This document shows positions 193-34,734 of a stretch of DNA of 36,070 bases, in pieces. Where the stretch lies: the UHGV virus genome UHGV-1528002; one strand, given 5' to 3'. Position numbers and translations under genes: made by a program. Positions within the stretch are counted from its first letter, which is position 1. Every line of letters starts with the position of its first letter. The DNA comes from a virus. The notes below the pieces were generated by a model, which worked only from the letters and a program-made list of their open reading frames with translations, was not told the DNA's origin and searched no databases.

Positions 193-1443
193 GTGCTTAC
201 CGATACAAAATTAAAAAACCTCAAGCCGCAGGACAAACTGTACAAGGTCTCCGATCGTGACGGGCTGTATGTCGCTGTGCTTACGTCAGGCACGGTCTCG
301 TTTCGTTATGACTACCGTATCAACGGTCGCCGCGAAACACTGGTAATCGGGCAGTATGGGCGTGACGGTATCAGCCTGGCAGAAGCGCGAGAAGAACTGA
401 TTGCTGCAAAGAAGCTGCTTAAAGCAGGCCAGTCGCCGGCTGCGGCTAAACGTGACGGTATCAAAAAGATTCGTGGTGCCGAGACGTTTGCGGTACATAC
501 CGCCAGTTATATGAAACACGTCATCCTGGCTGAAAGTACCCGCGCAATGAAGCAGGCAGTGATCGACCGTGAAATACTTCCTGTTCTTGGCAACAAAATG
601 ATGACTGAAATTACCACATCGATGGTTCGTGATTTGTGTGACAGGATTGTCGAACGCGGTGGTCGGGCAACAGCAGTACAGGCCAGGGAGATCATCAGCA
701 GCGTATACCGTCACGCCAATGACCGTGGTCATGGTTTGTTTAATCCTGCGGCTGACATTAAACCTTCGTCTATCGCCATATTTAAACCACGAGAGCGAAC
801 ACTGACACCAGAAGAAATTGGCCTGTTCTTCCGCACGCTGGATGCCATTGGTGCTATGGGCACTATGAAAATGGCTTTAAAGCTGGTGCTTATCACTATG
901 GTTCGTAAAGGCGAATTCACCAACGCAACGTGGGATGAAATAGATTTTAAAAAATGGACATGGACAATTCCTTCAGACCGCATGAAGGGAAGCCGGGCGC
1001 ACGTTATTTACCTGCCTAAACAGGCACAGGATATATTGGTCGGGCTGCAGATGTGCGCTGGTGGAAGTGAATATCTGGTTCCTGGTCGTTACAACTTCCG
1101 GAAGCCATTATCTAATGCCGCGCTGAACTCTCTGATCGACAGAACGGTGAAAATAATAAATGAAAATGGTGAGCATATTCAGGACTTCACCGTACACGAT
1201 ATGCGCCGTACAGCCAGTACGTTATTGCATGAGGCTGGTTATCCTTCAGACTGGATTGAAAAGGCTCTGGCACATGAGCAGAAAGGTGTGCGCGCCGTAT
1301 ATAACAAAGCGGAATACGCCAGACAGCGCGCCTACATGTTGCAGCAGTGGGCCGATATGATTGATTCCTGGATTGACGGGGAGCATACGGATCTGATTCC
1401 GTTCTCCCCGTCGAAGTTTGAGAAATGGATGGCGGGGGAATAA
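193..1443 (+). CDS. int: Tyrosine integrase, P4/CP4-57 type (GTG start)
   Basis: N-terminus LTDTKLKNLKP...YKVSDRDGLYVAVLTSGTVSFRYDYR is the arm-binding domain signature of P4-type integrases; C-terminal catalytic region HDMRRTASTLLHEAGY...ALAH; sits at the prophage end. Confidence 0.85.
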   Translation: MLTDTKLKNLKPQDKLYKVSDRDGLYVAVLTSGTVSFRYDYRINGRRETLVIGQYGRDGISLAEAREELIAAKKLLKAGQSPAAAKRDGIKKIRGAETFAVHTASYMKHVILAESTRAMKQAVIDREILPVLGNKMMTEITTSMVRDLCDRIVERGGRATAVQAREIISSVYRHANDRGHGLFNPAADIKPSSIAIFKPRERTLTPEEIGLFFRTLDAIGAMGTMKMALKLVLITMVRKGEFTNATWDEIDFKKWTWTIPSDRMKGSRAHVIYLPKQAQDILVGLQMCAGGSEYLVPGRYNFRKPLSNAALNSLIDRTVKIINENGEHIQDFTVHDMRRTASTLLHEAGYPSDWIEKALAHEQKGVRAVYNKAEYARQRAYMLQQWADMIDSWIDGEHTDLIPFSPSKFEKWMAGE

Positions 1444-14959: not shown

Positions 14960-15036
14960 TGGCGTGGCATGCAGGATTCGAACCTGCGACCAACCGCTTA
15001 GAAGGCGGTTGCTCTGTCCAACTGAGCTAATGCCAC
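14960..15036 (-). tRNA. tRNA-Arg, anticodon UCU, CCA encoded
   Basis: Minus strand folds as a cloverleaf: acceptor GTGGCAT/ATGCCAC, D-stem GCTC/GAGC, anticodon stem ACCGC/GCGGT with loop CTTCTAA, T-arm GCAGG-TTCGAATC-CTGC, discriminator G plus CCA. Confidence 0.85.
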
Positions 15037-24105: not shown

Positions 24106-24671
24106 TGTGTAACCCAGCCATCGCTTTGGTTGCCGTCACAGTGGCATCCACAGCCGCGTCAATGTACAGCCAGAGCAAGCAGGCAAAATACCAGTCAGCC
24201 ATAGCTGATCGGAATGCTGAAATTGCTGAAGCTCAGGCACAGGATTCAATCAATCGTGGGAATATTGAAGCGGATCAGCGTCGTCGTGAAATGCGTCAAC
24301 GCTCAGGTACTGCGGCGGCCACTATGGGGGCTACCGGTGCGGAATTAAGTAGCGGAACAGCTCTTGACGTTTTTGCGGATAATGCTCAGTTCGGCACTCT
24401 TGATGCGTTAACGACAGTGAATAATGCTCAGCGTGAGGCATATGGGTATCAGGTTCAGGGAATGAATGCTCAGGCACAGGGGGCTGCTGCTCAGTCGGCT
24501 GCTAAATCATCGATGACCAGCACTTTGTTAACGGCACCACTAAAAGCGTACGGTGCATATAAGTTGGGTGGCGGAAGTATCAATCCGATTAGTAAGCAAG
24601 GAAACACGCCAATGTTATCTAACTCAGGTTTTATGAATTCTGACTCCCGATTCAAAATAGGAGGTTACTGA
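24105..24671 (+). CDS. Internal virion protein B-like (T7 gp14-like)
   Basis: 188 aa starting MC, Ala/Gln/Ser-rich like T7 gp14. Confidence 0.5.
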   Translation: MCNPAIALVAVTVASTAASMYSQSKQAKYQSAIADRNAEIAEAQAQDSINRGNIEADQRRREMRQRSGTAAATMGATGAELSSGTALDVFADNAQFGTLDALTTVNNAQREAYGYQVQGMNAQAQGAAAQSAAKSSMTSTLLTAPLKAYGAYKLGGGSINPISKQGNTPMLSNSGFMNSDSRFKIGGY

Positions 24672-27292
24672 TGCCTGTTGTTCCTACTACATCCGGCCGC
24701 CAGGTGCAAAGTCGTGGTGTGCAAACCGGTGGTTTTCAGACCTTCGATGTTCCTCAAGCAGGTCAGGTGCTGGCGAATGTCGCAGATCAGTATGCGGTGG
24801 CATATGGTGAAGCCAGGCAGAAAGAGAATGTTGCTATGGTTCAGGAGGCATCCCTTAAACTCAGTCAGACAGGCAGCGATCTGCTGAATAACCCTGAAAC
24901 AGGTTTGCTTAACCTGAAAGGGAAAAATGCTATTGGAAAAGGTCAGGAGTATACGCAGCAGTTTGATGCTCAGGTCGAACAACTGGCTATGTCGCTGCCG
25001 GATGAACAGGCTCGTAATGCTTTCATGCAGCAGGCGCAGCAGCAGCGCATTCAGTTCACTACGCAGGCCGGGAGGTACGAAATAGGACAGGTTCGCCAGT
25101 ATGAGGCGGATATGCAGGATGCGACACTAAAAAACCTATCGATGCAGTTCCGTAACCCGACAATGGCAAACCAGGCAGGATTGAAGGCATATCATAGCAT
25201 CATCGCTTACGGCGAAGCCCACGGCCAGAGTCAGGAAGAGATTGAACAGAACTGGGTTTCGTGGCGCGAGAATGCCGCGAACGGTGCGGCGGAGGCGTGG
25301 TATGTGCCGATGTATCAACAGATGATGGGTCCGAACGGCAAGATTGAGGTAACCGATACACCGAGTGAGGCGCAGTTATTCTCTGCAATAATCTGGCAGG
25401 AGAGTGGCGGAAATCAGTACGGAAAGGACGGAACACCTCTGGTGTCGCCAAAAGGCGCTGTTGGCGTAGCGCAGGTGACGGAAGATACTGGCCCCGAAGC
25501 TGCCCGCCTTGCTGGCGTGCCGTGGGACCGAGATAAATGGTTGAATGACCCGCGCTATAATGCCCGCTTGGGGCAAGCTTATTTCGGCGCGCAGATGAAG
25601 AAATACGACAATAACCCGGTTCTGGCAGTAGCTGCCTATAACGCTGGCCCAGGAAAGGTTGACGGCTGGATTAAACAGATTGGCGATCCGCGCACAGGCG
25701 AAGTCAGTAACGCCCAGTTTGCCGCAGCTATCCCATACGACGAGACGCGCAATTATGTGGCAAAAGTAACTGGCAGTGCTGGAGCTATTCCTGGATCTGC
25801 GACGATGGAAAACCTCATCGCACAGCCATTCTGGAACGCCATGAGTCCGGACAAAAAGTCGCAGATGATGAGCAAGGTTGCTGGCATGTACGACATGCAG
25901 GCTTCAGCCGGTCGCGTTGCGCTACAGAGTCGAATGCAGGACGACCTATCCAAAATTGAGGCCGGTAAGCAGGTGACGCCTATTTCAGCGCACGAATGGG
26001 CCGCCGTTATGCCGCTTCAGGCAGCGCCTGCCGAGCGCCTGCAGATGGAAAAAACCTTCCAGCAATACCAGCAGGCAATGACGCTACAACCTGTTTATCA
26101 GACCATTATGCAGGGCAACGTCCAGCAAGGTACCGCCGCCGTGCAGGCAATGGCACCGCAGGAAAACGACTCTGACTTTAAATACAAAGCAGAGCTTTAT
26201 GCATCGGCAAAGGTCAAGCTTGGGCAGGTACTGAAGGCGCGGGAAGCGGATCCGGGGGCATGGCTGCAACAAAACTCTCCGGTTGTGCAGGCTGCATTCC
26301 AGCAGTACCTGAATGACCCTTCATCTGGTGAATACCTAGTTTCCCGCATACAGTCTGAAAAAGACCGCCTGGGGATAATGAGCAAAAAAGTTTTACCGGA
26401 GTCCATGGTCAACGACGTACTGCAGCGTATTGACAACACGCAGGAATCTAGCGTAAAGGCCATTCAGTCGGTGGCGCAGTCGTTCGGCAAATACTCGGAT
26501 CAGGTGATGCGGCAGGTGCAAAATAAAGCATTCCCAGCTTTAAAGGTTGTAATGTCTACAGAAAACCAACGGGCAGCAGATGCGTTGTGGCAAATACGGA
26601 ATGTACCTACTTCTGATTTGAGATCTGGTTTGGATAAAAACCAGGCAGACAGTGCAGACTCATCGTGGACAGATCAATTTAAAGATTTTTCTTCAACTCT
26701 TATTCCTCAGAGAAATGGTGCTGAAAACTGGACTATTTATAACGAGCAGGGAAAACGCTTGACCTACAACTACATGCAGCGCGGAATGTCGGCGTCTGAT
26801 GCAGCAAAACAGGCGTATCAGGACCTTCTCGGCGAGCAGTACCAGACCAATGGCACTTGGCGGCTACCTAATCGTGCAGGGGTAGATATTCGTGACGTTA
26901 ACGATGGTGCCAATGCGTATCTGAAAAACCTGTCAGCAGATCAGATTATGCCGCTTATTGGTGACCCAAGGCTACCTGATGAGGTCAACCGTGAGCAGAG
27001 TATCTCCCGCATTCGTGATAATGCGCAGTGGGTTACCAACAGCGACGAAACAGGACTTACCCTGATGCTCAACGGGCTGATCGTCAACGGTGCCGACGGC
27101 AACCCGATTACGGTGCCGTTCAACGATCTGGCGAAACTGGGAACAACCAACCGATCAGTATGGAACCGCATTACCAAGTTCATTGATACTCCGGTGAAAT
27201 ATACTCCCGGACAGTCTAAGGAATACAGCGCAGAAAGTCAGCGCGACAACCTGATTAACATTTTCCAGAACGGCCAGCAATCAGGACGATAA
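24671..27292 (+). CDS. Internal virion/ejection protein with lytic transglycosylase domain
   Basis: 873 aa; central IIWQESGGNQ...GAVGVAQV...AVAAYNAGPGKV is the SLT catalytic-domain pattern. Confidence 0.75.
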   Translation: MPVVPTTSGRQVQSRGVQTGGFQTFDVPQAGQVLANVADQYAVAYGEARQKENVAMVQEASLKLSQTGSDLLNNPETGLLNLKGKNAIGKGQEYTQQFDAQVEQLAMSLPDEQARNAFMQQAQQQRIQFTTQAGRYEIGQVRQYEADMQDATLKNLSMQFRNPTMANQAGLKAYHSIIAYGEAHGQSQEEIEQNWVSWRENAANGAAEAWYVPMYQQMMGPNGKIEVTDTPSEAQLFSAIIWQESGGNQYGKDGTPLVSPKGAVGVAQVTEDTGPEAARLAGVPWDRDKWLNDPRYNARLGQAYFGAQMKKYDNNPVLAVAAYNAGPGKVDGWIKQIGDPRTGEVSNAQFAAAIPYDETRNYVAKVTGSAGAIPGSATMENLIAQPFWNAMSPDKKSQMMSKVAGMYDMQASAGRVALQSRMQDDLSKIEAGKQVTPISAHEWAAVMPLQAAPAERLQMEKTFQQYQQAMTLQPVYQTIMQGNVQQGTAAVQAMAPQENDSDFKYKAELYASAKVKLGQVLKAREADPGAWLQQNSPVVQAAFQQYLNDPSSGEYLVSRIQSEKDRLGIMSKKVLPESMVNDVLQRIDNTQESSVKAIQSVAQSFGKYSDQVMRQVQNKAFPALKVVMSTENQRAADALWQIRNVPTSDLRSGLDKNQADSADSSWTDQFKDFSSTLIPQRNGAENWTIYNEQGKRLTYNYMQRGMSASDAAKQAYQDLLGEQYQTNGTWRLPNRAGVDIRDVNDGANAYLKNLSADQIMPLIGDPRLPDEVNREQSISRIRDNAQWVTNSDETGLTLMLNGLIVNGADGNPITVPFNDLAKLGTTNRSVWNRITKFIDTPVKYTPGQSKEYSAESQRDNLINIFQNGQQSGR

Positions 27293-31172: not shown

Positions 31173-31544
31173 ATGAACAGAATTATATTAATGATTATTC
31201 TTATGCTTTTAGTTGTAAAATCTTTTGCAGATACTACCTCACCGTTAATGATTCAGCCTAAAAATGGGGAAACACTGGAGGATTCTAAAAAGCATACAAT
31301 GGAATATTTTGGATGTATAAAAGGGCAGGCCGTAAAATACGCTAAGACAGGAGAAAGTGTTGATTCTATATCCAAAGCTTCGGTTGTGTCATGCGAGTCG
31401 TACATACAAAAGATTGCTGAATCAAATATATACTATTTAAATTCCTCTCAAGACGGTAAGCGGAAATTTATTGGAAGGCTTAAATCAGATGGTGAAAATT
31501 TAGCAACAAAATTTGCTATGGATGAAAAGCTAAAAAATAAATAG
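31173..31544 (+). CDS. Small secreted protein (signal peptide, 2 Cys), AT-rich moron
   Basis: N-terminal hydrophobic signal MNRIILMIILMLLVVKSFA then polar mature region; very AT-rich codon usage; starts 1 nt after the ejection-protein stop. Confidence 0.5.
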   Translation: MNRIILMIILMLLVVKSFADTTSPLMIQPKNGETLEDSKKHTMEYFGCIKGQAVKYAKTGESVDSISKASVVSCESYIQKIAESNIYYLNSSQDGKRKFIGRLKSDGENLATKFAMDEKLKNK

Positions 31545-31552
31545 GTGACTAC

Positions 31553-31849
31553 ATGCAAGCGATAGGATTCATTGTTTATATCGTCGTTGGTCTTTTTCAG
31601 TTGGCAGCAATTATGGCTGGGCTTGAATCATGGTGGGGATTGCACTGGATAATTGCAGCCCCCATTGCTTTCATCGTGAGCTATATTCCATTTGTTGGAG
31701 CGATTGTTGGTATGGTTGGCGCTGTGGATGTATGGCGGTGGGAGTGGTGGCAGGCTGGCCTTCTCTTCTTTGGTGGGATCATCTTTGCTATTGTCTGCGG
31801 TGGAATGTCATCATTTTTCGAATGGCTATCATTCAGAAAAAGAGTGTGA
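31553..31849 (+). CDS. Small integral membrane protein (3 predicted TM helices)
   Basis: 98 aa with three hydrophobic stretches and a basic C-terminus (FRKRV); AGGTGA RBS. Confidence 0.5.
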   Translation: MQAIGFIVYIVVGLFQLAAIMAGLESWWGLHWIIAAPIAFIVSYIPFVGAIVGMVGAVDVWRWEWWQAGLLFFGGIIFAIVCGGMSSFFEWLSFRKRV

Positions 31850-31858
31850 CATGTCACA
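31845..31858. repeat. Palindrome TGTGACATGTCACA, copy 3
   Basis: Perfect 14-bp palindrome overlapping the stop codon of the membrane-protein gene. Confidence 0.7.
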
Positions 31859-31883
31859 GGCCGCTTTCGCGGCCTTGTTTTTT
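31859..31883 (+). terminator. Rho-independent terminator ending the rightward late/accessory operon
   Basis: GGCCGC-tttc-GCGGCC followed by TTGTTTTTT. Confidence 0.65.
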
Positions 31884-32043
31884 AACGAATGCCACCGCCG
31901 CCCGGGCGGGAATCCGCAGAACGCCCACCGCAGCGGGAGCCGTCAGCGGCAGTATCGCTGTCGTGCTGACAACGACCGGCAAAGGCCTGAGTTGAAGCTA
32001 CCAGAGACAACAAAACGAACAGTGCAGCAAATGCTTTTTTCAT
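31882..32043 (-). CDS. Small secreted peptide (53 aa precursor)
   Basis: MKKAFAALFVLLSLVASTQAFA signal peptide with AxA site, about 31-aa mature part with 2 Cys; own TTGACG-16-TATAGA promoter-like region at 32050-32080. Confidence 0.4.
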   Translation of the reverse strand: MKKAFAALFVLLSLVASTQAFAGRCQHDSDTAADGSRCGGRSADSRPGGGGIR

Positions 32044-32112
32044 TGTGAAATTTCCATCTATAAGCCACCTCAATGTGGCGTCAATGAGTGTAGCACTGAC
32101 TTTTGTTTCGTC

Positions 32113-32138
32113 CACAAAAAAGCCCGCGCTGCGGGCTT
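32113..32138 (-). terminator. Rho-independent terminator after the 210-aa gene
   Basis: Minus strand AAGCCCGC-agc-GCGGGCTT followed by TTTTTTG. Confidence 0.65.
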
Positions 32139-32141
32139 CTA

Positions 32142-32774
32142 TTAATGCAGTTTATCTTTGCTTATAACCAGTAGTCTGTGGGTATGCACATCTTTATCAC
32201 TGCCCCAACAGAAATCAGCCCACTGGCTATAGAAATCATCCCATGATGTCATGAAGCTAAGAGGTCTATCTTCTTCAGAGCCATCTGAAACGTATACATT
32301 ATATCCCGGGGTGTTTATAGCCCAAGAAATCATTCTTTCCCAGAATCTTCTCCCATCGATTGTTTGTTGCTCATCAGATACAACGATCGCATATTGCTCT
32401 AGGAAGAACTGAAAAAAAATCTGAGGCAAACCATGAACAGCACGGTCATGAATAACATTAGGCGTACGCCATACCATGATCTGCGTACATGTTCTTTTGG
32501 CTTCGACGATATCTTCCCGAAAGATTAACTTAACCGCATACACCGTTTCTGGAGTATCGCTGGTAGTAATCATTCTGTAATGATCGCCATTACAAGATTT
32601 TACAAGGCGATAACCATAAGGTGTTGTGAATCCCGGAAGAACGAAATCAACCACACCTTTCGCTAAGTAGCTTTCGGTGTGACTAGTGTTCTTCTCAGAC
32701 ATGTTCAGTTTTCTATCGAAATCTGCTTCTGGGATAATGTATGGCATCGCTTTTCTTGTTGTATTTGTTCTCAT
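32142..32774 (-). CDS. Hypothetical protein (210 aa) under an operator-controlled promoter
   Basis: Strong GGGAGGA RBS; AT-rich; no recognised domain; promoter with overlapping operator immediately upstream. Confidence 0.6.
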   Translation of the reverse strand: MRTNTTRKAMPYIIPEADFDRKLNMSEKNTSHTESYLAKGVVDFVLPGFTTPYGYRLVKSCNGDHYRMITTSDTPETVYAVKLIFREDIVEAKRTCTQIMVWRTPNVIHDRAVHGLPQIFFQFFLEQYAIVVSDEQQTIDGRRFWERMISWAINTPGYNVYVSDGSEEDRPLSFMTSWDDFYSQWADFCWGSDKDVHTHRLLVISKDKLH

Positions 32775-32833
32775 TTCGTCCTCCCATGTTTGGCTACAGG
32801 ACGCGTTTTGAAGGGAAGATTAAAAATGCTTTC

Positions 32834-32876
32834 TTACCCTTGAGGTAATAGTACGCTATTCACCCCCAGTCTGCAA
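32834..32876 (-). promoter_or_regulatory. Promoter with overlapping operator for the 210-aa gene
   Basis: Minus strand TTGCAG (plus 32871-32876), 17 bp, TACTAT (plus 32848-32853), then TTACCTCAAGGGTAA (plus 32834-32848) starting at the last T of the -10. Confidence 0.55.
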
Positions 32877-32919
32877 TCTGTACAGAATTATTTAAAGGCA
32901 CGTCCCTGTGCCGCCGCCG

Positions 32920-33606
32920 TCAGAAGAACCCTGCCTTGTCGTTGATGTACTCCGCGTGGGTCTGGATATCACGCAGGCATTTACTCACACCGACGATGTA
33001 GCAGAACATGGTGGTCAGTTCCGCCGCCGCGCCCGATACGTCATGCCCGTCTTCCTGTAACTGGTTCAGCAAATTCATCAGCAGTGAGTTCTCCGTCAGG
33101 CCGAGAACACCAGACGGCGAATGAATCAGGCTGCGGTAGCCGGGCTTCAGCGGGGCACTGTAGGTTTTGTTCTCTATCTTCATCGCCTGCATCACTGCTG
33201 ATGCTGTGGCGTTTGCAACCTGGTCGGCAACCATCTTTATGCGTTCTTCCTGCGGGAGCGAGTTTTTAATGTAACTTCCGGTGCGGCGGATCTGAGGAAG
33301 AACCTCACCTGTAACCCATTTACGAAAGCGGTAGGGGATAGTGCCTGGTGTCACCGCATCGCGGCAGCGGAGGATCAGTGTGTAGAGGCCTGACTCGCTG
33401 ATAATATTGGTTTCGCCTTGACGACCTAAGTTAAATTTAGCCCTTTCATCATCATCAAGAGATTTGATTGACATGGTGGGGTTTGTCAGTTGAAGAGCTT
33501 TAATAACGTCTTTGGCAACAAACCAAGGATTTCCATCAATAACAATGGCTCGAATGGTTGCTTCTGATTCAAAATGAAAAACAGATGGGGTTACGTTAGC
33601 AGTCAT
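32920..33606 (-). CDS. Antirepressor, BRO-N domain with KilAC-like C-terminal domain
   Basis: N-terminal FHFESEATIRAIVIDGNPWFVAKDVIKALQL...IISESGLYTLILRC is the BRO-N pattern; ATG 33606 behind AAGGTGA RBS; C-terminal 75 aa are paralogous to the small gene at 34757-35014. Confidence 0.8.
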   Translation of the reverse strand: MTANVTPSVFHFESEATIRAIVIDGNPWFVAKDVIKALQLTNPTMSIKSLDDDERAKFNLGRQGETNIISESGLYTLILRCRDAVTPGTIPYRFRKWVTGEVLPQIRRTGSYIKNSLPQEERIKMVADQVANATASAVMQAMKIENKTYSAPLKPGYRSLIHSPSGVLGLTENSLLMNLLNQLQEDGHDVSGAAAELTTMFCYIVGVSKCLRDIQTHAEYINDKAGFF

Positions 33607-33762
33607 GGCAATCACCTTTTAGTATGGTTAATCACCACCTGAGGTGCAAATCTCGTTGGTGGTGAGACGTACAGGGTTTGCACTACCGGCTAAAAGGACC
33701 CGGCGCACCTTTCGGTGCCCCTGCACGTCCCACCATAATTCTGGCATGACTGTGCTATACGC

Positions 33763-33784
33763 ATAAAAAAACCACGTCTGGCGT
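33763..33784 (-). terminator. Terminator-like hairpin inside the antirepressor 5' leader
   Basis: Minus strand CCACG-ccaga-CGTGG followed by TTTTTTT, about 160 nt upstream of the antirepressor start. Confidence 0.45.
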
Positions 33785-33877
33785 GGTATGCGCCTTTTAG
33801 TAATCCGGGGTGCAAATCCCGGCACTGGATTTTGCCAGTGCTCAATTACTATGGCACAAGAGGAGTGCGATGTAAAT

Positions 33878-33921
33878 TTACCGCAAAGGTAATGATAAAC
33901 GCTGATAAATATAAAAATCAA
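33878..33921 (-). promoter_or_regulatory. Leftward promoter with overlapping operator driving the antirepressor leader
   Basis: Minus strand TTGATT (plus 33916-33921), 18 bp, TATCAT (plus 33892-33897), then TTACCTTTGCGGTAA (plus 33878-33892) starting at the last T of the -10. Confidence 0.5.
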
Positions 33922-33970: not shown

Positions 33971-33985
33971 TTACCTTTAAGGTAA
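33971..33985. promoter_or_regulatory. Operator palindrome TTACCTTTAAGGTAA
   Basis: Exact consensus copy 21 bp upstream of the ATG of the membrane zinc-ribbon gene. Confidence 0.5.
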
Positions 33986-34005: not shown

Positions 34006-34734
34006 ATGGAAGTTTTCTGGATAGTTGTTGGTGTGGTTGCGGTGATTATTTACGTTATCAACCAGAACAAGACTAAGATCTCTGATCGTACGGTCGTTAA
34101 TCATAACAAAACGATAAAGACCGAAGATGGGGAGATAACGATTAATCGTACACAGGTGATAGAACACACCTCTACTCAGTTTCAAAAAACTGGAGGTAAT
34201 GCGCCTAATATTTCCGCACCTCCTGCTTATGATAGTGCGGTAATCCAGACATATTATAAACAGCAGGAGTTAGCAAAAGAGAGGCAACTGATTCAGCCAA
34301 AGCCGTTTACAGCTGAGCTTCCACCTGGAGTGTCAACGCGTCCGGCATATCATGGAAGATTCCCTGGTGATGACATATCGTCTCAGTCATCTAAAAAAGC
34401 ACCTCAGGCAGTATCAGAGCCAGCAAGAATACCTTCTGTATCGCCGCCAAAAGAAGAATCAGCTAACAGAGTTTCAAGTGGTAGCAAGCAGTGCTTGCGA
34501 TGCAGAATAAACCTTCCATATGAAAAATTCAGGAAATCGTCAAAAAATCCAGATGGATTGACTAAGTGGTGTGCAAGGTGTCTCGATGGCCCAAAGAATA
34601 CACGCCATATGAAGTGGTGCCCAATTTGTAATGTCCGCAGAAAACGAACCAGCTTTTACCCTAATAATCAAAATGCGGACGGCTTAATGGCATGGTGCAA
34701 AACGTGCTGGGATGAGCACAAAGCGAAACGATAG
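34006..34734 (+). CDS. Membrane-anchored protein with tandem C-terminal zinc ribbons
   Basis: N-terminal TM helix (VFWIVVGVVAVIIYVI), low-complexity linker, two repeats of CxxC...NPDGL..WCxxC; GAGGAAAA RBS. Confidence 0.55.
   Translation: MEVFWIVVGVVAVIIYVINQNKTKISDRTVVNHNKTIKTEDGEITINRTQVIEHTSTQFQKTGGNAPNISAPPAYDSAVIQTYYKQQELAKERQLIQPKPFTAELPPGVSTRPAYHGRFPGDDISSQSSKKAPQAVSEPARIPSVSPPKEESANRVSSGSKQCLRCRINLPYEKFRKSSKNPDGLTKWCARCLDGPKNTRHMKWCPICNVRRKRTSFYPNNQNADGLMAWCKTCWDEHKAKR

Follow-up and report, generated by a model that had tools for sequence, protein, structure and literature searches.

The 36,070-nt UHGV virus genome UHGV-1528002, analysed at its full length and called the window below, carries an accessory interval in which a gene for a 210-amino-acid (210-aa) protein and a small gene for a 53-aa precursor of a secreted peptide lie one behind the other on the minus strand, downstream of an antirepressor gene, ant (positions of all features are given in Table 1). 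A megablast search with positions 31500-33700 returned phiV10, TL-2011b, phiv142-3 (classed as Uetakevirus), vB_EcoP_ZX5 and related records, and because of these relatives and of the gene order from the integrase to the ejection-protein modules, the window is judged to be an almost complete epsilon15/phiV10-like (Uetakevirus) prophage or phage of E. coli. Judged in the same way from sequence comparison, the interval itself is a set of two unrelated accessory genes in the immI-like region of this prophage. The explanation that we favour, and which we regard as moderately probable as a whole, is that the 210-aa gene occupies a repressor-gated cargo slot and encodes a GNAT-like enzyme, and that the secreted peptide is encoded by a separate gene.

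The 210-aa gene is preceded by the strong ribosome-binding site noticed in the first-pass annotation (GGGAGGA, 4 nt before the ATG), and upstream of this lies the promoter TTGCAG-17-TACTAT, which we call the slot promoter. An operator at its +1 had been proposed and is indeed present, as the palindrome TTACCTCAAGGGTAA, of the form TTACC-N5-GGTAA, begins with the T that ends the -10 element and spans the expected transcription start. Counted with at most one mismatch, TTACC-N5-GGTAA has 15 copies in the window where 0.6 would be expected; none of 100 shuffled sequences reaches 15, and the copies are found in nearly every intergenic region, including those ahead of the packaging and virion genes. 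From this distribution and position the palindrome is probably the operator of the phage repressor; such operators were reportedly first proposed in the 2007 epsilon15 genome paper of Kropinski et al. The slot promoter had also been called near-consensus, which does not hold, for it matches the sigma-70 consensus at 7/12 positions only and went unreported in a scan at 9/12. The same overlap of -10 element and operator is found at three stronger promoters, namely TTGACA-17-AATTAT (5158, minus strand; the early-left promoter), TTGATT-17-TTTAAT (8325, plus strand) and TTGATT-18-TATCAT (33878, minus strand; the ant promoter), and the slot promoter and operator are conserved ahead of four different types of cargo. 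The slot promoter is credible because of this shared geometry and this conservation. In a lysogen the ant and early-left promoters must be silent, and since the operator covers -10/+1 here just as it does there, the 210-aa gene should be off in the resting prophage; most likely it is expressed when the phage infects and once it is derepressed.

A 1041-bp query over both genes had matches in 490 of 5426 complete E. coli genomes and was covered to at least 80% in 93, the number of these genomes that carry this 210-aa gene. In other genomes of the 490, both ends of the query match and the middle is replaced by other cargo, which may be a 108-aa protein with a YafO-like toxin, a DUF2335 protein with small open reading frames (ORFs), a DUF4760 protein, or two hypothetical proteins of 55 and 146 aa; PADLOC models gave no match among these alternative cargos. 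Read side by side, the prophages are homologous from the ant stop codon through a hairpin, the promoter and the operator, and this homology ends directly after GGTAA; it restarts at the terminator AGCCCGC-NNN-GCGGGCTTTTTT and continues through the peptide promoter and gene. Because homology breaks at the operator and restarts at the terminator, the segment between promoter-operator and terminator is a position for exchangeable cargo, bounded on the left by the palindrome and on the right by the terminator. The latter has a 10-bp stem of the AGAAGCCCGC-AGC-GCGGGCUUCU type followed by U6, with a folding energy of -15 to -17 kcal/mol and z = -2.6, and it is kept downstream of different cargos, in Klebsiella too. 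The gene thus has a terminator of its own, a fold and U6 after the stop codon, as the first-pass annotation had stated. The AT-rich composition claimed there was likewise found (GC content 0.41-0.43 against ~0.55 in the flanking ant and ejection-protein genes), and its description of the gene as a discrete promoter-operator-gene-terminator unit, here with foreign base composition, can be retained, with the repressor presumed to bind at the operator. The hairpin that precedes the slot promoter is weak (-8.5 kcal/mol, no different from shuffled sequences), and it is kept in relatives along with the promoter. In E. coli BE311 (NZ_CP097213.1), whose prophage bears the DUF4760 cargo, the spacer of the slot promoter is 7 bp shorter (TTGCAG-10-TACTAT) and the adjacent ant is frameshifted; from its sequence, the immI region of this prophage appears to be decaying.

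With its own promoter, its own terminator and its deviating composition, the 210-aa gene has the marks of a phage moron. Like the accessory genes of phage morons and prophage hot spots such as lambda bor/lom, the P22 immI/sieA region and those of P2, it forms a promoter-gene-terminator cassette of deviating GC content that is placed between conserved modules, and its alleles are exchanged among related prophages. Classical morons are expressed from the repressed prophage. The slot promoter differs from theirs in that a phage operator lies across -10/+1, so that one would expect the cargo to stay silent in the lysogen and to be released with ant. The operator-controlled slot is an unusual variant of the phage moron and not a new kind of system.

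Upstream of the slot lies the ant operon, whose operator-bearing promoter is followed by an isrK-like small RNA with a terminator hairpin, a C4-type antisense RNA and ant itself, which encodes a protein with a Bro-N domain. Both RNAs exceed the Rfam gathering scores and stand upstream of the antirepressor gene, as in an immI-like region. In P1, immI is made up of c4-icd-ant, a similar arrangement, repressor operators are many and scattered, and a repressor-controlled kilA-repL operon lies just after ant. The 15-copy operator network of the window resembles the scattered C1 operators of P1, and several of its copies overlap the last base of a -10 element. Like P1/P7 immI and the isrK-orf45-anrP-isrJ region of Gifsy-1, the region studied here has its regulatory RNA genes (here an isrK-like and a C4-type RNA) upstream of ant and an operator-controlled promoter; unlike them, it has a variable cargo slot and a secreted-peptide gene after ant, not isrJ or kilA-repL, and its operator sequence and repressor are unrelated to those of P1 C1. 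For the isrK-orf45-anrP operon of Gifsy-1 the same arrangement has been described (PMC4825925). Because isrK and C4 RNAs above the gathering scores precede a Bro-N ant, a Uetakevirus uses RNA control of the Gifsy-1 isrK-anrP or P1 immI type for ant. The candidate repressor, a 194-aa protein, has an HTH_3 domain and no peptidase S24 (self-cleavage) domain, which is consistent with antirepressor-driven induction. In a sister Uetakevirus, overexpression of repressor and antirepressor showed their control of the lytic switch (PMC9782041).

The first-pass annotation could match the 210-aa protein to no family. This stands for Pfam, NCBIfam, PADLOC and the sequences of the PDB (the last searched with two profiles), but not for PHROG, which places the protein in phrog_1349 and the small ORF in phrog_14503. 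A word-indexed search gave 63 clusters, all from Enterobacterales and all named 'hypothetical' or 'phage protein', and an exhaustive profile search (E <= 1e-3) gave 893 representative clusters at 50% identity, mostly single-domain proteins of ~200 aa. When 135 diverse members of the family were compared with Pfam, nothing but rare fusion partners (MqsA N-terminal, DUF5397, SRA) was matched. It was the structure that placed the protein. The AlphaFold2 model (pLDDT 89.9, pTM 0.83) has a GNAT-type mixed alpha/beta core with an extra N-terminal helical segment and extra strands, and its best structural match is the GNAT-like domain of ICL2/Rv1916, further matches including HAT1, DfoC and AAC(2')-Ia, with ~116 residues aligned at 5-12% identity. 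Foldseek against the PDB gave no significant hit; its sub-threshold list consists entirely of GNATs, headed by the toxins KacT and AtaT and including TacT3. The model thus shows a GNAT-like fold, distant and divergent, and for the protein acyl-transfer chemistry would be expected. Conserved across the family are Y79, Q98, W102, R103, F121, L124, S133, D134, Q137, T138, G141, F144, W145, A152, Y161, D164, W190, G191 and I204. The polar residues among them cluster on the central strands and the following helix, as they do in the GNAT superfamily, and in the model this cluster looks like an active site; the remaining conserved positions form the hydrophobic core.

Genes of this family occur in phages and chromosomes of many Enterobacterales, including Yersinia, Proteus and Enterobacter, and with one genome per species scanned and the neighbours clustered, 68 loci were found. 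Whether in one of five phage architectures or at a fixed site in a chromosome, the gene is solitary throughout. Besides the Uetakevirus slot of the window, the phage contexts are Serratia siphovirus-type prophages, where the gene lies between the tail-assembly genes and the tape measure, beside a P22_AR_N antirepressor and an Arc-like gene; P1-like elements, where it lies between the baseplate operon and the SLT gene; the lambdoid phage LLS, behind the lysis cassette; and a prophage end, after the tailspike gene. In five genus groups the position is fixed between housekeeping genes. The homologue lies between a helix-turn-helix (HTH) regulator and nfsB in Enterobacter, Leclercia, Lelliottia and Silvania, between phosphotransferase system genes and hda-arsC-bepA in Photorhabdus, between thiD and pagP in Proteus, between dapA-bamC and purC in Providencia, and after an hpmA-like gene in Morganella. 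Purifying selection on these chromosomal copies is strong, the ratio of non-synonymous to synonymous substitution rates (dN/dS) being 0.03-0.11. Because they are long kept, unpartnered and under such selection, the family is no unconditional toxin. In Enterobacter, Leclercia, Lelliottia and Silvania, a palindrome lies between the -35 and -10 elements, ~60-90 bp upstream of the homologue, and it covaries between species, being ATCGA-N7-TCGAT in some and ATCTA-N7-TAGAT in others, which suggests that the copies of these genera may also be under a dedicated DNA-binding regulator; LexA boxes were looked for upstream of the chromosomal homologues and none was convincing. The copy in Escherichia phage LLS (PQ299149.1, 4001-4633), which was isolated on E. 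coli K-12, is 84% identical and lies just after the lysis cassette.

A few relatives are fused to other domains. A 270-aa fusion with DUF5397 (E. coli/E. fergusonii, common in E. coli; locus L087, 2526-3338) is flanked by genes for a HipA-type kinase, a TacA-type antitoxin pair and a reverse transcriptase, and a metagenomic fusion of SRA_ScoMcrA with the family domain (locus L088, 5823-7080) follows and overlaps a Phd/YefM antitoxin gene. A third (locus L091, 1519-2262) joins an MqsA N-terminal zinc ribbon to the family domain; an MqsR partner was sought for it and none is nearby.

In the explanation that we favour, the phage operator across -10/+1 would gate a slot directly downstream of the isrK-C4-ant operon, and recombination would swap cargo genes between the conserved operator and the conserved terminator. 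The 210-aa protein would be made only where the repressor is missing or has been inactivated, on infection or on induction by Ant, and at the same time as the products of ant and the lytic genes. It would most likely be an acyl-transfer enzyme with a probable role in phage-host or phage-phage conflict, and its target would more likely be a protein or a small molecule than a nucleic acid, because its isoelectric point (pI) is acidic to neutral (5.97; family median 6.1) and no antitoxin accompanies it. The Sec-exported peptide of ~31 aa with two Cys would come from a small gene apart from the slot, which has a promoter-like region of its own.

Several observations weigh against this explanation. 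The slot promoter is weak by consensus, and we infer the binding of the repressor there from the operator sequence. In addition to the low identity and the extra N-terminal helix and strands that set the family apart from the GNAT superfamily, neither the protein nor 134 relatives matched Pfam Acetyltransf, and hhalign comparisons of the family with RimI alone and with a RimI profile (a shallow one, as its homologues were only close relatives of at least 82% identity) were not significant. The canonical Q/R-x-x-G-x-G/A motif could not be placed in the protein, where a loose G115-x-A/P117 alone is present, conserved in ~55% of members, and F144-W145 stand at the equivalent of the usual catalytic Tyr region. 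The promoter-like region of the peptide gene is kept in E. coli relatives and poorly in Klebsiella and Cronobacter. We found no experimental data on either gene in the literature, and the long chromosomal retention of the 210-aa family fits a role of benefit to the cell better than a function in the lytic cycle of a phage.

The last point leads to the main rival explanation, to which we give a modest chance, namely that the 210-aa protein protects the lysogen as a single-gene anti-phage defence or as an effector of abortive infection, either through low expression despite the operator or by being switched on when an invader disturbs the repressor. It is kept alive by the chromosomal copies, whose strong purifying selection suggests a benefit to the cell, and by the island contexts, since distant relatives lie beside HipA, TacA-type and reverse-transcriptase genes and the SRA fusion occupies the toxin position behind an antitoxin gene; moreover, the other slot alleles include a YafO-like toxin pair, and the moron-like anatomy and foreign GC content would suit it. 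But PADLOC has no match for the protein or for any other slot cargo, the copy of phage LLS behind the lysis genes is in the position of a late lytic transcript, and an operator placed over -10/+1 as at the ant and early promoters, necessarily silent in the lysogen, fits poorly with a classical defence gene expressed from the prophage. The suggestion of the first-pass annotation that the interval is a candidate for defence or toxin-like functions is thus in part upheld, with respect to the accessory region and the distant relatives in toxin-antitoxin and defence islands; a simple toxin is unlikely, and no known defence system was matched.

There is a small chance that the protein is no enzyme and is a GNAT-like module that binds a ligand or a protein, for example a regulator or inhibitor of a host or phage protein, or an acyl-CoA sensor. 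Such a binding role is conceivable because the best structural match is the GNAT-like domain of ICL2/Rv1916, and it would agree with the lack of the canonical acetyl-CoA motif, with the Trp at the usual catalytic Tyr region and with the recurrence of the gene beside antirepressor genes. On the other hand, Q98, R103, D134, Q137, T138, Y161 and D164 are polar and clustered on the core strands like the residues of an active site.

A GNAT directed at nucleic acid, either through Mom-like hypermodification of DNA against restriction or through TacT/AtaT-like acetylation of charged tRNA that arrests translation, has a slim chance. Mom of phage Mu has a GNAT fold and carries out Gly-tRNA-dependent hypermodification of DNA adenine (PMC13219725, 2026 work). 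It is a precedent for a very divergent GNAT-fold accessory enzyme of a phage, and also for such proteins not needing acetyl-CoA; like the 210-aa gene, mom is a solitary accessory gene of a temperate phage, for a protein in the range of ~210-240 aa, and its expression is lytic only. Lytic-phase expression would be well timed for modifying DNA ahead of its packaging, one relative is fused to the modified-DNA-binding SRA domain, and the best Foldseek hits, although not significant, are the GNAT toxins named above. However, a Mom-like identity was tried on the Mom Pfam family, the Mom PDB entry, hhalign and pI and failed on all of them. Pfam Mom (PF25680) matches Mu Mom at 2.4e-75 and matches neither the 210-aa protein nor its 134 relatives, hhalign of the family with Mu Mom gives 0.15% probability, and Mom is strongly basic (pI 10.0) with an HTH-like insertion, unlike the acidic-neutral family, in which the key Mom residues R111, S124, D149 and R151 have no counterparts of matching spacing. 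With TacT, AtaT and KacT the family shares the fold class, and one distant relative follows a Phd/YefM antitoxin gene; unlike them, it has no adjacent antitoxin in the window or at the 68 loci and no cognate RHH/DUF1778 partner, it is not basic (pI being an indirect proxy for a tRNA-binding surface), it lacks an Acetyltransf match, and it persists as stable solitary chromosomal copies.

The first-pass annotation viewed the 210-aa gene and that of the secreted peptide as an accessory pair, a two-gene toxin or defence module. This is hardly tenable, since although the genes are adjacent on the same strand of an AT-rich accessory region, a strong terminator and a separate promoter-like region lie between them, the peptide gene is ~5 times more widespread (~490 E. 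coli genomes against 93) and is combined with at least four other, unrelated cargos or with none, and members of the 210-aa family are found in five phage types and over 60 species where the peptide gene is missing. PADLOC-DB 2.0 models matched neither gene nor the neighbours.

The two genes being independent, the peptide can be considered by itself. Its precursor has the n-h-c signal peptide with AFA cleavage and the Cys-containing mature part of ~31 aa that the first-pass annotation had described; read from the sequence, the signal peptide runs MKK / AFAALFVLLSLVAS / TQAFA followed by G, and the pattern is kept in 27 homologues. It has no L-x-x-C lipobox, which rules out a lipoprotein. The precursor has no Pfam family; phrog_14503 is labelled 'membrane associated protein', and 57 clusters of homologues are named 'transmembrane anchored protein'. 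Homologues occur in Escherichia, Shigella, Klebsiella, Citrobacter, Cronobacter, Franconibacter, Salmonella, Pectobacterium and Dickeya, and in their alignment the signal peptide is variable but hydrophobic and C-x-H-D-x-D-T-A-A-D-G-S-R-C-G-G-R-S-A-D-S-R-P-G-G is almost invariant. Codon changes in the mature part are 14 synonymous and 2 non-synonymous against Pectobacterium, 16 and 1 against Cronobacter, and 11 and 5 against Klebsiella. Because synonymous changes outnumber non-synonymous ones, the small ORF is evidently translated and strongly constrained as a protein, and codon comparison and conservation support the earlier reading of it as a genuine secreted-peptide gene. A 77-aa version with a GTG start was rejected, as the upstream extension is unconserved and would bury the signal peptide, and mimicry of another protein of the window was rejected too, since a tblastn search of the window with the mature part returned nothing but the peptide itself.

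Of the promoter-like region with an inverted repeat that had been assigned to the peptide gene, both parts are present, but the repeat CCACATTGAGGTGG is indistinguishable from chance (z = -1.55) and is broken in one relative. No copy of the phage operator was seen at this promoter, and thus the peptide may be expressed in the lysogen. The gene is the last of the leftward accessory arm and is convergent with the ejection-protein operon in Uetakevirus-like prophages of E. coli, Klebsiella and Cronobacter; in Cronobacter it is present without ant or cargo, and in Pectobacterium it lies in a different phage type. The hairpin between it and the convergent membrane-protein gene has a folding energy of -15.7 kcal/mol and z = -3.4. 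The peptide most likely acts in the periplasm, where it would bind a conserved partner, as a factor of lysogenic conversion or exclusion. It would be disulfide-looped and possibly metal-binding, and its partner could be a host envelope protein or the ejection machinery of an incoming phage.

Further genes of the window were noted in passing. After the ejection-protein operon, two AT-rich plus-strand genes share one accessory spot, the first for a 123-aa protein with a signal peptide and no family and the second, a small gene, for a 98-aa multi-pass membrane protein (phrog_3075); a Klebsiella relative has a Rap1a-type protein, like those of type VI secretion system immunity, at the position matching 31173-31849, which makes this another variable accessory spot. 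Beyond the ant promoter, behind an operator-bearing promoter, lies a gene for a 242-aa protein (phrog_6762) with an N-terminal transmembrane helix, C-terminal Cys-rich zinc-ribbon repeats and weak endonuclease VII, Lar-like and Stc1 matches; near this position relatives have an 85-aa gene and the tailspike. A tRNA-Arg gene lies within the phage.

Table 1. Features of the accessory interval, its regulatory elements and the remaining window.
Feature	Position	Strand	Remarks
Peptide precursor gene, 53 aa	31882-32043	-	phrog_14503
Signal peptide, codons 1-22	32043-31978	-	
Mature 31-aa peptide, two Cys	31977-31885	-	GRCQHDSDTAADGSRCGGRSADSRPGGGGIR
Peptide promoter-like region	32056-32084	-	TTGACG, 16-17 nt, TATAGA/ATAGAT
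Inverted repeat	32078-32065		CCACATTGAGGTGG; in spacer of peptide promoter-like region
Intrinsic terminator	32113-32140	-	AGAAGCCCGC-AGC-GCGGGCUUCU-type stem, U6; right slot boundary
210-aa gene	32142-32774	-	phrog_1349; ORF; solitary cargo
Shine-Dalgarno sequence of 210-aa gene	32785-32779	-	GGGAGGA
Operator palindrome	32834-32848		TTACCTCAAGGGTAA (TTACC-N5-GGTAA); left slot boundary
Slot promoter	32848-32876	-	TTGCAG-17-TACTAT; -35 at 32876-32871, -10 at 32853-32848; sequence and scoring
Weak hairpin	32897-32912	-	GGCAC-N6-GTGCC then TTTAAAT; between ant stop and slot promoter
Antirepressor gene ant, 231 aa	32920-33615	-	Bro-N, Pfam E = 1.5e-19; PHROG anti-repressor Ant families
C4-type antisense RNA	33655-33740	-	5' of ant; Rfam RF01695, 77.8 bits (gathering score 45), full length 1-87
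isrK-like small RNA	33765-33841	-	first element of ant operon; Rfam RF01394, 67.4 bits (gathering score 50)
Terminator hairpin of isrK-like RNA	33787-33771	-	terminator scan
Promoter of ant operon	33892-33921	-	TTGATT-18-TATCAT; promoter scan; -10 abuts operator copy 33878-33892
Operator copies	136, 5158, 5220, 5932, 5980, 6317, 8263, 8325, 12150, 12168, 15359, 32834, 33878, 33971, 35091		TTACC-N5-GGTAA
Integrase gene	193-1443		start of gene order
RecT/exonuclease genes			module after integrase
HTH regulator gene, 194 aa	5292-5876	-	candidate repressor
O/P-like replication genes			module after HTH regulator
tRNA-Arg gene	14960-15036	-	anticodon TCT; between terminase and portal regions
Virion and ejection-protein genes	24671-27292 (SLT-domain protein)		include SLT-domain protein
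123-aa protein gene	31173-31544	+	
98-aa membrane-protein gene	31553-31849	+	phrog_3075
GC-rich hairpin	31858-31875		between convergent peptide and 98-aa genes; T-tract on + strand only
242-aa protein gene	34006-34734	+	phrog_6762; behind operator-bearing promoter (33971-33985)

The phrog_1349-type family is large and strongly selected and has no entry in Pfam, NCBIfam or the defence database, and its GNAT-like fold gives a concrete biochemical hypothesis, for which phage LLS, growing on E. coli K-12, is a convenient experimental model. Present in ~9% of complete E. coli genomes, the secreted peptide is a candidate for lysogenic conversion or exclusion in the periplasm. A wider claim, that phrog_1349 is a new class of GNAT-fold conflict enzymes with an unusual donor or acceptor, as in Mom, and that the slot is a general effector port triggered by derepression, has in our view only a small likelihood. 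If it were true, the cargos of this port (GNAT-like, YafO-like toxin pair, DUF4760, DUF2335) would be released only on loss of the resident repressor, and this release could serve the phage's own take-over of the host or, alternatively, could be an abortive response of the guard type to inactivation of the repressor by an invading phage or a foreign antirepressor. With its conserved promoter/operator and terminator, its exchangeable cargo and an RNA-regulated antirepressor alongside, the slot departs from the idea of morons as genes expressed in the lysogen, and it offers a simple route to further cargo genes that would act at the moment of derepression.

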